From: Eledone cirrhosa
Taxonomy: Eukaryota
Reading direction: 5' to 3'
Assembly: GCA_964016885.1 (NCBI GenBank)
Contig: OZ024749.1
Coordinates: 20,708,001 to 20,772,000 of the forward strand
Length of the DNA: 64,000 nt
Shown here: one piece after another, positions 33,630 to 63,851 of the stretch
Layout: each line of letters starts with the position of its first letter
Numbering within the stretch: position 1 is the stretch's first letter
Program-made: the position numbers and the translations under genes
Notes under the pieces: generated by a model
What the model saw: the letters and a program-made list of their open reading frames with translations, nothing else
Told to the model about the DNA's origin: nothing
The model's database searches: none

Positions 33630-33703
<74 letters not shown>

Positions 33704-33743
33704 TTTAGCGAGGTTTTTTATATGAAATCGTGTGTCGAAACAG

Positions 33744-34038
33744 ATATTGTTATACTTGGGGAGGGTCATATTTGCGTAATATTGCCAGAATTAATAACAG
33801 AACACACTCACTGTTTGGTTGGTTTTCGCTTCTCGCTGTCTTTTATATCTGCTACCTAACTTACTCGGTCCTCAATGTTGCCATTGACTGACCGACGGTC
33901 AGTCAATGGCAACATTGAGGACCGAGTAAGTTAGGTAGCAGATATAAAAGACAGCGAGAAGCGAAAACCAACCAAACAGTGAGTGTGTTCTGTTATTAAT
34001 TCTGGCAATATTACGCAAATATGACCCTCCCCAAGTAT

Positions 34039-34046
<8 letters not shown>
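33744..34046. repeat. Perfect palindrome with ~151 bp arms and a 1 nt centre (33895), made of a PLE-like 3' terminus
   Basis: Arms are reverse complements. The terminus TGACCCTCCCCAAGTATAACAA(TA)n matches the 3' end of the PLE at 48891. Confidence 0.9.
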
Positions 34047-36242: not shown

Positions 36243-36578
36243 TCCAGAATCCTTTTTCGCCTGCTTCCTAACTAGCCTAATTTCACACACTCCTTAGAAT
36301 TTGCTGTATAGAATCACTTTTAACGCTTGATCGGCTCCACCCACTCCCTCATTGTTCTACAGGCAAGTTCAACCACCCCCACCTCTCACCCACTGCCATG
36401 AAAGATTTAATTGTGTTTACAAGAAATTTTGACCAATCCCCTTGACAACTACAATCTTCCCATATAAGGAATTACCCCTTGAAAAGTTCGGCTATTTATT
36501 ACCAAGCTAAAAATTCTAATTTACTCCAGAAATAGCCGTCGAAACGGCTTGAGCTCTGCCGTCGGAGTTAAACATTTT

Positions 36579-36647
<69 letters not shown>

Positions 36648-38380: not shown

Positions 38381-38545
38381 ATATATATATATATATATAT
38401 TCGTCGGGTTTGAAGGTTCACCACTGGATAGAGCTGGTCAATTCCGTATGGTCAATCTTAATGTAATAATATAGAGAGTACTCAACGTAAAGCAGTTCAA
38501 CCGTCTTCTTTTTGTAGTTGGTGGTGCGAGTACGGAGTTAAATAT

Positions 38546-38906
38546 TATAATAAAATGACAGGAGGCTGGATTTGTGTAAATCCTTGAAAGGTTTATTATA
38601 ACTATGATCATTTCAATGACCAGGTTTCGTATGAATCTGGTGATATCATCAGGTATTGGAAATACAATAAATGAATGTAATAGGTAAAATCCAGGGCGAC
38701 TGGATAAAGTGGAAGATGCTAGATGGTCGGTCGTCCTCCTGTCTTTGATTTTCAGCCCCATGGATTTTACTTATTACATTCATTTATTGTATTTCCAATA
38801 CCTGATGATATCACCGGATTCATACGGAACCCGGTCATTGAAATGATCATAGTATAATAAACCTTTCAAGGATTTACACAAGTCCAGTCTCCTGTCATTT
38901 TATTAT
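38546..38906. repeat. Inverted repeat (arms 38546-38693 / 38761-38906) of a hammerhead-bearing PLE end
   Basis: ~146 bp arms with a few mismatches and a ~67 bp spacer; the right arm abuts (TA)n. Confidence 0.9.
38798..38855 (+). ncRNA. Type I hammerhead ribozyme motif (mirror copy on minus strand at ~38599-38655)
   Basis: AUAC-CUGAUGA-UAUCACCGG...CCGGUCAUU-GAAAU-GAUC-AUA-GUAU; palindromic GAUC loop III, AUA cleavage triplet. Confidence 0.75.
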
Positions 38907-38921
38907 ATATATATATATATA

Positions 38922-39115
38922 TAACGAAGGAAATGTGGTAAGGAACCAGGTGGACCATAACGCACCAAAGTACTCAATACTTAGGGTAGTAGAGTGGGTA
39001 ATAGGAACGAGTAGGACCCCGACGGCTGAGCTCAAGCCGTTTCGACGACTAATTCTGGACGTCCAGAATTAGCCGTCGAAACGGCTTGAGCTCAGCCGTC
39101 GGGGTCCTACTCGTT

Positions 39116-39120
<5 letters not shown>
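38922..39120 (-). mobile_element. ~200 bp asymmetric hairpin element (PLE-end derived) inserted in (TA)n
   Basis: 60 bp arms centred at 39060/39061 plus a ~79 bp unpaired tail. Near-identical reverse complement of 63284-63480. Confidence 0.85.
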
Positions 39121-39154
<34 letters not shown>

Positions 39155-39215
39155 GTAGAACACTGGAAGGTAATATCCGTAGTGGTAGAACACTCAGTCC
39201 ATGGGACGAGTTAGG

Positions 39216-39284
39216 TAGAAGTGGTTACACAACAGGTAGTTCACCATACCGAGTGGTGAACTAACTGTTGTGTAACCACTTCTA
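39216..39284. repeat. Short hairpin with ~30 bp arms next to (TA)n
   Basis: TAGAAGTGGTTACACAACAGGTAGTTCACCA / TGGTGAACTAACTGTTGTGTAACCACTTCTA. Confidence 0.85.
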
Positions 39285-40622: not shown

Positions 40623-40627
<5 letters not shown>

Positions 40628-40834
40628 ATAATAATAAATTTGAAGACTAAAATCCAAAGAGGGCTCGATAAGGATAAATATATATCAAATATATAAGAAC
40701 CGTAGAGCAAATATTTATTAAAATAACAGATTATAGTTTAAGCAAAGAATCGCTGCTTTCACCCTTAACGGGAGTTTCAGAAGATCCCGTTAAGGATGAA
40801 AGCAGCGATTCTCTGCTTAAACTTTAATCTGTTA

Positions 40835-40841
<7 letters not shown>
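40623..40841. mobile_element. Asymmetric hairpin of the PLE-C family terminus (arms ~40716-40773 / 40784-40841, tail 40623-40715)
   Basis: Same sequence as 50821-50891 and 52932-53018; bracketed by (TA)n. Confidence 0.82.
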
Positions 40842-40967: not shown

Positions 40968-40970
<3 letters not shown>

Positions 40971-41226
40971 ACAATAATAAAAGGATGGTTTGTTATATCT
41001 TCGTTGCGTTTATTTGATTGGTGACGCGCGTTTCGCTATTGATCAGCTCAAGGTTCGATCTGTATTGATCTGGCCCGAATTTGGAATCAAAAACTCGTCG
41101 GACCTCTGCTGTGGTAATGAGAGAATGAACATATAAGGCATAGACATCTCTATATTTTGATTCCAGAGTCGGGCTAGATCGACACAGATCGAACCTTGAA
41201 CTGATCAATAGCGAAACGCACGTAAC

Positions 41227-41231
<5 letters not shown>
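40968..41231. repeat. Inverted repeat (arms ~41017-41092 / 41155-41231) with one-sided tail, between (TA)n tracts
   Basis: Arms contain GAAACGCGCGUC, resembling the 3' half of a hammerhead with palindromic loop III. Confidence 0.82.
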
Positions 41232-41276
<45 letters not shown>

Positions 41277-41363
41277 GTAAAAGTTCTATTTAAATTGTTG
41301 GGACACAACAAGCAAATACTTTTATAACTGATATAAAGCACTCAACAAATTATTGGAGTAAAA

Positions 41364-41645
41364 ATACGATATTAACAAATGGAAATTATATTTATAAAAC
41401 CATATTTATTTCATTATACATATTTCAAGGAGACCAAGTTAAATTATGGTGTGCTTTCGTCAGGTAAAATATAATATAGATCAGTTTTATAAATAAATAT
41501 TGACATACCCTTAAAGAATGCGACCATTTCTGTTGGAAGCTCCCGGATAGAACTATCCGGGAGCTTCCAACTTGGTGTCCTTGAAATATGTATAATGAAA
41601 TAAATATGGTTTTATAAATATAGTTTCCATTTGTTAATATCGTAT
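41364..41645. repeat. Inverted repeat (arms 41364-41440 / 41569-41645) with an internal perfect hairpin at 41532-41571
   Basis: Arms are reverse complements; internal GTTGGAAGCTCCCGGATAG-AA-CTATCCGGGAGCTTCCAAC. Confidence 0.88.
41403..41472 (-). ncRNA. Probable type I hammerhead ribozyme motif
   Basis: Minus strand UAUUUUAC-CUGACGA-AAG..ACCA...UGGU..CUU-GAAAU-AUGU-AUA-AUGAAAUA; imperfect stems. Confidence 0.55.
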
Positions 41646-42639: not shown

Positions 42640-42715
<76 letters not shown>

Positions 42716-42776
42716 AAAGGTAAACAGAAATAACAACACAATAGTTGGTACAGTATATGGAAGGTATATATTAGGG

Positions 42777-42814
42777 TCTTAACGTTTCGGACGCGCTAGT
42801 CCTTCATCAGAAGA
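42777..42814 (-). ncRNA. Minimal type I hammerhead ribozyme motif
   Basis: Minus strand UCUU-CUGAUGA-A-GGAC(UAGCGC)GUCC-GAAAC-GUU-AAGA. Confidence 0.7.
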
Positions 42815-43358
42815 AAGAATGAGAAATAAAATAGATTGAGGGGACGGGCGGGATGGAATTGGAAAAAATGCCTGATAAAAATAACAGGCCCATATATATA
42901 TATATATATAATTCTCCCTGGTACTAGGCTTGATTCTTCTGTCTTCAGATCTTGAGAGAAGATGGGACCCCACCAGGTTTAAGATATCCAAGACCCGCCA
43001 TATTTCACTATGATGTTCCTCCACTCCATCAAGAGGTACAAGCCTATATATAGATACATTTAAATGAAAATCTTCGAAAATAATTTTATATAAGAACCAG
43101 ATGTTAACTGTTTTGATACCAACCTGCTGAAAAGTCACCCCAGCTTCTACGAACCCAAACCACCCATTTTAAAGGGTTCCTATTTAGATTAAAATCTTCC
43201 AACATAATTTTATATAAGAATTATATGTTAACACTTTTCCCACCATCCAACTAAAATCAATTCTAGTTCCGTGGAACAAAACTATCCATTTTAAAGGGCT
43301 TCTATTGAAATAAAAAATCTTCCAGCATTATTTTATATCAGAACTGCCAATCCACGTC

Positions 43359-48407: not shown

Positions 48408-48574
48408 GGAAAAAAGAAGAAATCGAAAATGCAACTGGAGTCTGTTTTTTACAAAAATATATAATTATATGAGATGGAGGGTTTGTGGTTTTTGAGAAAA
48501 ACCACAAACCCTCCATCTCAATTCTACTTTTGAAAAAAAGACTCCAGTTGCATTTTCGATTTCATCTTTTTTCC
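48408..48574. repeat. Imperfect hairpin with ~80 bp arms centred near 48495
   Basis: GAAATCGAAAATGCAACTGGAGTC / GACTCCAGTTGCATTTTCGATTTC and TGAGATGGAGGGTTTGTGGTTTT / AAAACCACAAACCCTCCATCTCA. Confidence 0.85.
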
Positions 48575-48630
48575 GAATATATATATTTTCGAAACAGCGA
48601 ATATTTTCGAAACAGTGCGCGGGTTTGAAA

Positions 48631-48864
48631 TTATTATAAATGTAAGCTATCGCCGTATTTTGACTAAAGAAATTAAAGAAATTACTTAGCCTGATAGTGG
48701 GGTTAAGAACCCTCGGAGAAATGGAAAAAGATGAGTATTGACGTGCATGTACGTCAATACTCATCTTTTTCCATTTCTCTGAGGGTTCTTAACCCCACTA
48801 TCAGGCTAAGTAATTTCTTTAATTTCTTTAGTCAAAATACGGCGATAGCTTACATTTATAATAA
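48631..48864. repeat. Near-perfect palindrome with ~117 bp arms and no spacer (centre 48747/48748)
   Basis: Arms are reverse complements with about 2 mismatches; mirrored ORFs appear in the ORF track. Confidence 0.92.
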
Positions 48865-49038
48865 TAATAATAATATATATATATATATATATTGTTATAC
48901 TTTGGGAGGGTCATGTTGCCAATAAGAAACACACGCACCAGTTGCTTTCACTTCAATTTATTATATATTTATAAATTTACAAATTTATAAATTTCTGGTT
49001 GGTTGGTTGGTTCCACAACCAGATAGTTGTTTATATAT

Positions 49039-51820: not shown

Positions 51821-52918
51821 CTATCCGTTAGGGTATAACGTGGGGCTGTAATACAGGAAAGTTTTGTGCAATTTATGTTTACAAGCCGAAATTGCCTCAG
51901 ATTTTTTGTTTAAGATGTGGTCTGTGGCGTAGAGTATTTCCAGGGCCTGAGCGGCGCAGAGGTCACATGGTCTTTTATTTCCGTTATACGATCTAGCCCT
52001 AGCTAGGATCTCCCAGTGTAACTTATATTGGGTGTGGTTCTCTTTTAGACTCCAGATATAAGCTGAAAGTGACGTCATATTCCTTCTTAGAGGGTAACGA
52101 AAAGAATGAGTATGCATGTAAAGACGCTGCTTGAAACTATTGGCGGTTAACCCTATGTAGGCCCTACGGGACGTGGGTGTTACAACCTTACATTTGTAGA
52201 CAATGTTACTAGAGAGGCATTTCCCGGATAGGGGGCAATCAACCCGATTCCTACAATTACAGTCAGTACTAACTACAGGGTTGCACGTGTTCCTACGGCT
52301 AGGTAGTTTAGCTAAATTTGAAGCTGTGATGTTATGTGCAAGGTTAGGTGTCGTAGAGTAAGAAATTTTAATAGTATTTCTATTAAAAATGTTACTATAT
52401 TTATGTGTAGGGGGAAAATGCTTCGTAATAATGGAAAGAAAGATCTTAGCTAATGGTGTGGCCACCTCCATATTATATGGTGGGTTAAACCAACAAATGC
52501 GACGGGATCTATTTCTTCTAGGTCTATTTTCGTACTCTGTATATGCTACCTTATCGTCAAATCCACTTCGAGCAAGAGCTTCATTGTAATAAGTGGAATG
52601 GTCGTTGAAAATGCGCTCGTTGGTGGAAAGACGGGAAAGCCTCAACGAAACGTTTCTTACCAGGTTCTTGGTTATGCTGGCAGGATGGTTGGAATGCTTA
52701 CTTATGTAATTAAGCGTATCATTCGGCTTTCTATACGGGTAATACAACCCATTCAATAAATTGAGGGTAACGTCGAGGTAATTAACGACCAAGAGATTGG
52801 CCTCAACCTGTATAGAGAGGTTGAAGCCTTTAAAGAGGGCTGTGAGTTCTTTTCTGAACCTGTCGCAAGCACGAGGTCCGCACTTAGTCATGGTCAAAAG
52901 ACCATCGTCACGGTACAA
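51821..52918 (-). pseudogene. PLE ORF fragment: RT C-terminal half plus GIY-YIG endonuclease (365 aa open, 5'-truncated)
   Basis: YRDDGL catalytic motif, NYLDVTL, YRKP..SNHP thumb, CNCR..CPL..KC linker, IVYKC...AYIGLTANSFKQR endonuclease. Confidence 0.93.
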
Positions 52919-53422: not shown

Positions 53423-53453
53423 TATATATATATCGCTCTCTGTATATATATAT

Positions 53454-53534
53454 ATTACCCACTCTACTACCAAAAGTTTCGAGTACTCTGGTGCCTTATG
53501 GTCCACCTGGTTCCTTACCACACTTCCTTCGTTA
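53454..53534 (+). mobile_element. Isolated tail of the 38922/63284 hairpin element family
   Basis: ATTACCCACTCTACTACC...CCTTCGTTA between (TA)n tracts. Confidence 0.8.
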
Positions 53535-53607
53535 TATATATATATATGTATATATATATTTATATATATGTATGTATATATATATATGTATGTATATATA
53601 TATATAT

Positions 53608-58875: not shown

Positions 58876-59131
<256 letters not shown>

Positions 59132-63025: not shown

Positions 63026-63214
63026 ATATGAAAGAGCCGGGATCCCGACGGCTGATCTCTTGCCGTTTCAACAATTTGTTCCAACTATCTGTTGAAACGG
63101 CAAGAGCTCAGCCGTCGGGGGTCCCGACTCTTTCATATTACCACATTGTACTACCCCAAGTATCGAGTACTCTGGTGAGTAATGGACTAACAAGTTTTTA
63201 CTGCATCTATTTTG

Positions 63215-63220
<6 letters not shown>
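63026..63220 (+). mobile_element. Diverged relative of the hairpin element (arms 63026-63073 / 63090-63138 plus tail)
   Basis: GAAACGGCAAGAGCTCAGCCGTCGGGGTCC and tail TACTACCCCAAGTATCGAGTACTCTGGTG. Confidence 0.78.
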
Positions 63221-63283
<63 letters not shown>

Positions 63284-63288
<5 letters not shown>

Positions 63289-63477
63289 AACGAATAGGAC
63301 CCCGACGACTGAGCTCAAGCCGTTTCGACGGCTAATTCTGGACCCAGAATTAGCCGTCGAAACGGCTTGAGCTCAGCCGTCGGGGTCCTACTCGTTCCTA
63401 TTACCCACTCTACTACCCTAAGTATTGAGTACTTTGGTGCGTTATGGTCCACCTGGTTCCTTACCACATTTCCTTCG

Positions 63478-63480
<3 letters not shown>
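63284..63480 (+). mobile_element. ~200 bp asymmetric hairpin element, second copy
   Basis: Centre at ~63342; reverse complement of 38922-39120. Confidence 0.85.
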
Positions 63481-63545
<65 letters not shown>

Positions 63546-63590
63546 AAGTTAAATAAAAGTCAAATGATTAAAATTTAGCTTCGTTTATTA

Positions 63591-63643
63591 CTGCTATATA
63601 TATTTCAGTCACAGCCATCTTTGGCTGTGACCTCTTCAGGCAG
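63591..63643 (-). ncRNA. Type I hammerhead ribozyme motif
   Basis: Minus strand CUGC-CUGAAGA-GGUCACAGCCA(AAGA)UGGCUGUGACU-GAAAU-AUAU-AUA-GCAG; all three stems intact. Confidence 0.82.
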
Positions 63644-63672
63644 TTTGAATTAGTATGGTATAGACAAGTACA

Positions 63673-63851
63673 TATGTTTTTTAGGTGTATAATATTGTCA
63701 ATACTCTGATATGCCCAGTTCCTTGTTGGGTTGTTATTTCACTGAGGAACTGGAGTCATATCATATGACTCCAGTTCCTCAGTGAAATAACAACCCAACA
63801 AGGAACTGGGTATATCAGAGTATTGACAATATTATACACCTAAACAACATA
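63673..63851. repeat. Near-perfect palindrome with ~89 bp arms and a 1 nt centre (63762)
   Basis: Arms are reverse complements with about 2 mismatches; lies just 5' (minus-strand sense) of the 63591 hammerhead. Confidence 0.9.

Follow-up and report, generated by a model that had tools for sequence, protein, structure and literature searches.

The inverted repeat at positions 38922-39120 of the window—the 64,000-nucleotide stretch of Eledone cirrhosa DNA analysed here—belongs, judging from its sequence, to a population of short head-to-head copies, tens of thousands in number, of the front end of a Penelope-like element (PLE). Each insertion has one outer end at +43 and one at +126, a sharp inner edge at −18 often marked by an extra G, and a variable junction. 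We consider it likely that such hairpins are two cDNAs that ran off a PLE RNA starting inside stem II of the element's own hammerhead and were joined head to head. An inverted copy and a one-sided tail are known PLE features (PMC8557442, PMC3846280, excerpts); the novel part is the putative cap-marked RNA start inside a PLE hammerhead, no description of which came up in searches of largely open-access literature.

A two-armed copy with half a hammerhead in each arm

Positions 38922-39120 comprise a 59-bp perfect-type hairpin with a one-sided 81-nt tail, and (TA)n runs lie on both sides (Table 1). As the initial annotation had proposed, each arm carries the 3′ half of a hammerhead, GAAACGGC-TTGAGCTCA-GCCGTC-GGGGTCC, and inspection of the arm sequences found the 5′ core box in neither. 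With +1 defined as the G of the hammerhead GAAA, the arms begin ~40 nt downstream of the parental 5′ core box, so the hairpin lacks the core box by which a hammerhead is recognized. A 25-mer from one arm had 44,497 exact matches in the 3.0-Gb genome and its reversed control none, which is far beyond chance.

Table 1 Features of the hairpin and of related copies in the window (numbering from +1, the G of GAAA)
Feature	Position	Strand	Description
Long (tailed) arm	38918..39060	-	Parent -17 to +126; 95% identity to parent unit over 143 nt
Long-arm content	38918..39060	-	Hammerhead 3′ half: GAAA from 39043, cleavage triplet ending 39021
Long-arm tail	within 38918..39060	-	81 nt, up to distal copy-end site, merging into (TA)n
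Short arm	39061..39120	+	Parent -17 to +43; GAAA at 39078, stem III, GTC cleavage triplet ending 39100
Short-arm end	39061..39120	+	Stem I 3′ strand, then stop at proximal copy-end site
Head-to-head junction GGAC/GTCC	39057..39064	.	Each arm starts one base short of the inferred RNA 5′ end (-18)
(TA)n target, left flank	38902..38923	.	
(TA)n target, right flank	39118..39151	.	
Second two-armed copy	63284..63484	+	Short arm -17..+43 on minus strand (63343-63284); long arm -15..+126 on plus strand (63344-63484)
Single long arm, another subfamily	58882..59025	+	Begins at -18; preceded by 7-nt duplication of its own start
Longer 5′-truncated parent fragment	36282..36585	+	-263..+45; complete but decayed hammerhead, 5′ core TTGAAAA 36479-36485, GAAA 36541
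Diverged older relative	63026..63218	+	Short-arm and long-arm layout as in the 38922 hairpin
Tail-only fragment	53453..53538	+	+41..+126

The copy at 63284-63482 is 97.5% identical to the 38922 copy, lies in opposite orientation and shares its short end and tail end, as had been described; the centre, said to be shared too, is not, reading GGAC/GTCC (arm starts −17/−17) in one copy and GGAC/CCAG (−17/−15) in the other. A common beginning near CCAGAA had been read into several copies. It applies to the one at 58882 and fails for the one placed at 36525, which continues upstream as parent sequence to ~36282 and whose TTGAAAA core makes it a complete, decayed hammerhead and not a short arm. The relative at 63026, in turn, has the layout of the 38922 hairpin, a short arm facing a long one.

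An Rfam search of the window returned weak miRNA-type matches on hairpins and no hammerhead match. Hairpin elements of unrelated families, likewise flanked by (TA)n, occupy 33703-34042, 38400-38901, 39152-39282, 40624-40836, 40970-41228, 41273-41642, 48470-48870, and 63543-63847. By eye, a fragment at 42704-42891 (minus strand) holds an apparently complete minimal hammerhead with CTGATGA, a short stem II, GAAAC, and a palindromic stem III. Positions 1-31500 are taken up by a large satellite array with a 63-bp repeat and higher-order repeats.

The parent is a Hydra-clade Penelope-like element

A gapped search for the 5′ core yielded copies that share upstream sequence, these led to the end of an endonuclease-like ORF, and a protein search completed the route to the parent. 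The parent forms tandem arrays, one of which has units of 3,531 bp that are 99.97-100% alike, each with one 716-aa ORF starting at +214. In this ORF we recognized by eye the reverse transcriptase (RT) motifs FDI and YRDD and a GIY-YIG motif in the form VIY..YIG—that is, a single RT with a C-terminal GIY-YIG endonuclease—and atlas neighbours of the protein carry GIY-YIG and RVT_1 at 0.96-0.97. A Pfam search of the 716-aa protein gave no match; Pfam and PDB sequence searches were uninformative. Partial tandems, an inverted 5′-truncated copy, and a one-sided tail, traits of endonuclease-bearing (EN+) PLEs, are all present.

The Hydra clade is defined as EN+ PLEs with RWK, DKT, CxCX5C, and CxxC/CxH motifs, no CCHH, and a (TA)n target (Craig et al. 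2021, PMC8557442, excerpts). Our ORF matches this definition with an RWK-like RWR, DKT, the CxCX5C linker CNCPDRSIC, CNLC, and CKH, lacks CCHH, and belongs to a family whose copies show the (TA)n insertion preference; the hammerhead, the partial tandems, the inverted 5′-truncated copy, and the one-sided tail are further points of likeness. These motifs place the parent among the Hydra-clade EN+ PLEs and displaced our first reading of it as Neptune. It departs from the clade, as the excerpts describe it, in unit length (3.5 kb versus generally <3 kb) and tail length (81 nt versus 30-40 bp), in a hammerhead that differs from the one given for Hydra-1_oBim, and in that 76 of 90 arms here are only 60-145 nt long and start inside the ribozyme.

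Other searches led elsewhere. One for the continuation of the tail missed the parent, in which the letters after the tail include an A, and the first search for CTGANGA retrieved mainly chance junctions and cores of other families. The candidate L039 proved to be a cross-family join: at L039:900-1660 (minus strand), the CTGATGA core of another family, whose stem II is also ~60 nt long, is joined ahead of the GAAA and stem III of the hairpin's family. In the window, an old fragment at 52584-52746 (minus strand) has 67% likeness to the parent ORF.

The parental ribozyme is modelled as a type I hammerhead with a long stem II

That the parent would be a PLE carrying a hammerhead 5′ half had been anticipated by the initial annotation, as had a long stem II, and both are present in the tandem units: in a computed fold, the unit of the youngest array adopts a type I hammerhead with a three-way junction and a 56-nt stem II, and 97.8% of cells are paired across 21 copies. 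A 5′ core box is present as foreseen, albeit not in the expected CTGANGA form; it usually reads TTGANAA or CTGAGAA, and CTGAGGA occurs only in copies chosen for CTGAGGA. In 59 unselected copies, the core was U3-A8 in 47 and had a C3-A8 mismatch in 10, the latter form accompanying the subfamily nearest to the window copy. The covariation score was reached by 83 of 500 shuffles and is not significant, the copies being too alike, and the fold was no more stable than those of shuffled sequences. As modelled, the parent holds a complete type I hammerhead fold, mostly with a U3-A8 core, whose catalysis is putative.

U3-A8 is a described variant of PLE hammerheads (Cervera and de la Pena 2014, PMC4209133), with which the parent also shares type I topology, a G10.1-C11.1 pair, and a palindromic loop 3. 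Compared with the ribozymes in the excerpts of that paper, it has a 5-bp stem III and the long stem II instead of a minimal motif, the C3-A8 mismatch in one subfamily, and an apparent start site that splits the motif. The starts of three read-through copies (L322, L329, and L375) coincide with or adjoin the ribozyme cut site, which hints weakly, and post hoc, at in vivo cleavage; no start peak was seen there among 192 tailed arms (mixed sampling). Trans-cleavage of the half-ribozyme by the parental element, also suggested earlier, is geometrically possible but unsupported: in a hairpin transcript, the half-ribozyme would be buried in a −134 kcal/mol duplex, and a co-fold with a natural parent 5′ half gave no hammerhead shape.

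Insertions pair one short with one tailed arm around variable centres

To sample the family we took 90 of the first 100 arms listed on contig C1, not chosen by centre, which resolved into 73 insertions: 14 long ones, 50 same-family pairs, and 9 short arms without a called partner. A short arm was paired with a tailed arm in 50 of 50 pairs (49 by script, 1 corrected by eye), and wherever both arms of a long insertion were visible, one side ended at +43 and the other at +126. A bulged hairpin folds just behind +126 according to a computed fold; a twin behind +43 was seen by eye, where the energy minimum favours another fold. In 10 of the 14 readable junctions of long insertions, the truncation points of the arms lay >300 nt apart, which argues that these arms are separate cDNAs.

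Hairpin centres differed in 21 of 21 cases, many with templated duplications or poly(A), and no arm-specific substitution bias was found in these 21 hairpins. Templated insertions are a signature of repair. Runs of 12-16 T immediately before the start point at three loci (L141, L145, and L078), equivalent to poly(A) on the cDNA strand, suggest tailing of run-off cDNA ends. Approximately 3 of 44 comparable arm pairs were discordant in subfamily. Even cross-family joins exist (in L093, for instance, each arm begins at its own start point); they were retrieved by searches selecting for CTGANGA, and deletion between neighbouring copies may explain some of them.

This variability bears on the proposal, raised in the initial annotation, that the ~200-bp hairpin is itself a non-autonomous element, whole copies being made from master hairpins. 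Near-identical matches do occur genome-wide, 38 of 40 scored candidates span the whole query, and the GGAC/CCAG centre recurs among matches that are query-biased. Yet in samples not picked by centre no centre was seen twice, so that the fixed internal structure of a MITE- or SINE-like unit is missing; arm spacing varies from 40 to 87 among the arm matches listed, arms of different families or subfamilies are sometimes joined, and every parent subfamily has short copies of its own. A hairpin transcript would, moreover, be fully paired and devoid of sequence downstream of +126. We regard the master-hairpin account as highly improbable and caution that such hairpins can be misclassified as DNA foldback elements.

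A sharp inner edge inside stem II often carries an extra G

Start positions of the 76 short arms were clearly non-random, as had been predicted of the fold-back points: 61 fell at −22..−11, 7 at −35..−24, and 8 at −6..−2. The mode is at −18/−17, and the A of TYAGT (TTAGT or TCAGT) forms the edge. The initiator consensus is TCAKTY or YYANWYY. Genome-wide, the base before −18 was G in 1,136 cases and A in 190 (counted in contexts excluding a partner arm in register), as against 19 G and 59 A in the same test at control position −15 (odds ratio 18.6), and position −19 was T or C in 78 of 78 parent-like copies. In none of 30 G loci viewed did parent sequence continue upstream of the extra, untemplated G; the partner, an insert, or (TA)n stood there instead. 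In a public DNA run, which may be the assembly's own sample, contig depth stepped up ~8-fold in the bin after −18 and dropped ~240-fold past +126.

An edge within stem II is also what one would look for if a single cDNA stalled in the long stem, folded back and copied itself. Such self-priming, raised by the initial annotation, has been proposed for rotifer PLE palindromes (PMC3846280, excerpts), and it would fit the 56-nt stem II, the arm starts on its 3′ strand, and the mostly concordant arms, the largely shared subfamily variants being predicted by fold-back as well. The parental loop, though, is retained in few centres (L114, L151), and most contain neither the loop nor the 5′ strand of stem II. 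The predicted apex lies at −27..−24, 6-9 nt away from an edge that is an A with an extra G, and just 7 of the 76 short arms extend as far as −24 or further, two by way of poly-T. Fold-back also leaves the fixed +43 end without a reason and is at odds with the non-palindromic junctions of 10 of 14 long insertions and with the cross-family and discordant pairs; in its favour, non-nested short arms could come from later deletion in a palindrome. It seems very unlikely as the general route and would account for a minority at most.

In full-length L1 insertions, an additional 5′ G is a known sign of the cap (PMC11702581, excerpts), and the pseudo-LTR promoter of D. virilis Penelope has an initiator (PMC2377424, excerpts). 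Together, the extra G and the sharp edge point to a putative capped start of transcription within stem II, dividing the ribozyme in two, although an uncapped processed end combined with a C-adding RT would yield the same extra G. Small samples of other families gave similar starts: in those at 40624 and 63660, an initiator-like A preceded by a G marks the arm start, and the arms of a third family start at an initiator-like A. Since these families start alike, and two of the three do so upstream of the core, the start site appears to be general and the split ribozyme family-specific.

Two cDNAs could also have met at −18 if this were a processed end or an RT block, produced by a nuclease cut in stem II or by a splicing-related stop at TYAG. 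TTTCATTYAG can indeed be read as a splice acceptor too, and none of 12 full-ORF copies, nor any of the read-through copies followed, was a full-length copy starting at −18. Against this, the arms retain the AG without a constant upstream exon, and families that start outside stem II likewise show one G ahead of an initiator-like A. We consider a processed or blocked end unlikely.

A proposed origin from two run-off cDNAs joined head to head

How the tandem and inverted ends of PLEs form is called an open problem in PMC8557442 (excerpts). Under the joining of two run-off cDNAs, which we favour, the two ends of a cut (TA)n would each prime cDNA synthesis, using two sites close to where the element RNA begins, with a single RNA usually serving both primers. 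Both cDNAs would run off the probably capped RNA 5′ end inside stem II—with −18 as the presumed Pol II start, given the initiator-like TYAGT and the cap-derived G—and their ends would likely be joined head to head via end-joining repair, by microhomology or with templated insertions. On this account the catalytic core, which the initial annotation thought deleted, is not deleted, because it lies upstream of the inferred start; the whole ribozyme would be carried only by read-through RNA. The tens of thousands of junctions in the hairpin's family favour two separately primed cDNAs, and copies of the family seem to preserve the exact base, within the family's ribozyme, at which its RNA starts. 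A start at −18 predicts a CAGE peak, cap-dependent addition of C, and a run-off product.

A PLE protein has been found to extend both strands in vitro and to start synthesis at two internal sites, one on each side of the tail (PMC11167929, excerpts). This system, Poseidon_Ac (Frangieh et al. 2024), resembles ours in its AT-rich target, in the cutting and extension of both strands, in the two internal initiation sites that bound the tail, and in the hammerhead immediately upstream of both; the parent here belongs to a different clade. L1 twin priming, as described in excerpts of PMC11702581, is similar in that two target ends are extended by RT, joining is inverted with microhomology or inserts, and an extra G marks a complete 5′ end. 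Here, by contrast, the cDNAs overlap and both reach one 5′ end, giving a palindrome and not an inversion.

Longer copies and possible template jumps

With none of the full-length copies beginning at −18, the long ones require a different template or a homologous jump. Read-through, cleaved, or circular RNA, as put forward in PMC4209133 (excerpts), may provide that template. Hairpins outnumber long copies ~5:1. In the read-through set (149 exact junctions, 95 examined), 72 copies continue upstream of −30, 5 start at −21..−15, and 18 further downstream. These five, all of them short copies, are more than would be expected from the local background of 16 events in 320 nt (Poisson p ~3e-5). Among 16 read-through copies that start at −21 or further downstream and were followed, 7 run to +185..+349 and then restart on the same strand at −21..−7; an eighth restart (L410) occurs at −17 after a short insert, and L403 has two starts at −18, of which the outer one carries a G. 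These restarts suggest that the RT can jump after running off at the RNA 5′ end.

It is conceivable, if rather doubtful, that the PLE is copied like retroviral strong-stop DNA. Capped transcription would start inside the hammerhead and the RNA would end at the next hammerhead cut, creating a 41-nt terminal repeat; an RT primed near the 5′ end from target DNA could produce pseudo-LTRs and tandem arrays only by jumping to the RNA 3′ end, and hairpins would be failed jumps. If so, an mRNA starting inside the hammerhead would be unable to cut off its own cap.

At one locus (L401; G000:C1:424496000-424502000), each of the three segments of one insertion has parent position +184 directly followed by the first base past the ribozyme cut site. 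This single case is what a circular template of 161 nt, closed where the ribozyme cleaves, would be expected to give.

Another locus (L396; G000:C2:356028800-356032800) is a 299-bp tandem array of 7 to 8 units, each spanning parent −76..+244 minus 21 nt in stem II and retaining the U3-A8 core and both end sites. It looks like a nascent retrozyme derived from the parent PLE. The hairpin itself resembles animal non-LTR retrozymes (bioRxiv 10.64898/2026.07.22.740005, excerpts) in being short, non-coding, PLE-derived, and hammerhead-related. Retrozymes as described there consist of tandem units with a complete hammerhead in each, unlike the head-to-head arms and half ribozyme of the hairpin; only the L396 array fits that description. 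Elsewhere, a long PLE insertion (L229-L230; G000:C1:91487000-91493000) has at its junction a 55-bp piece of the ORF that is tandemly repeated >60 times.
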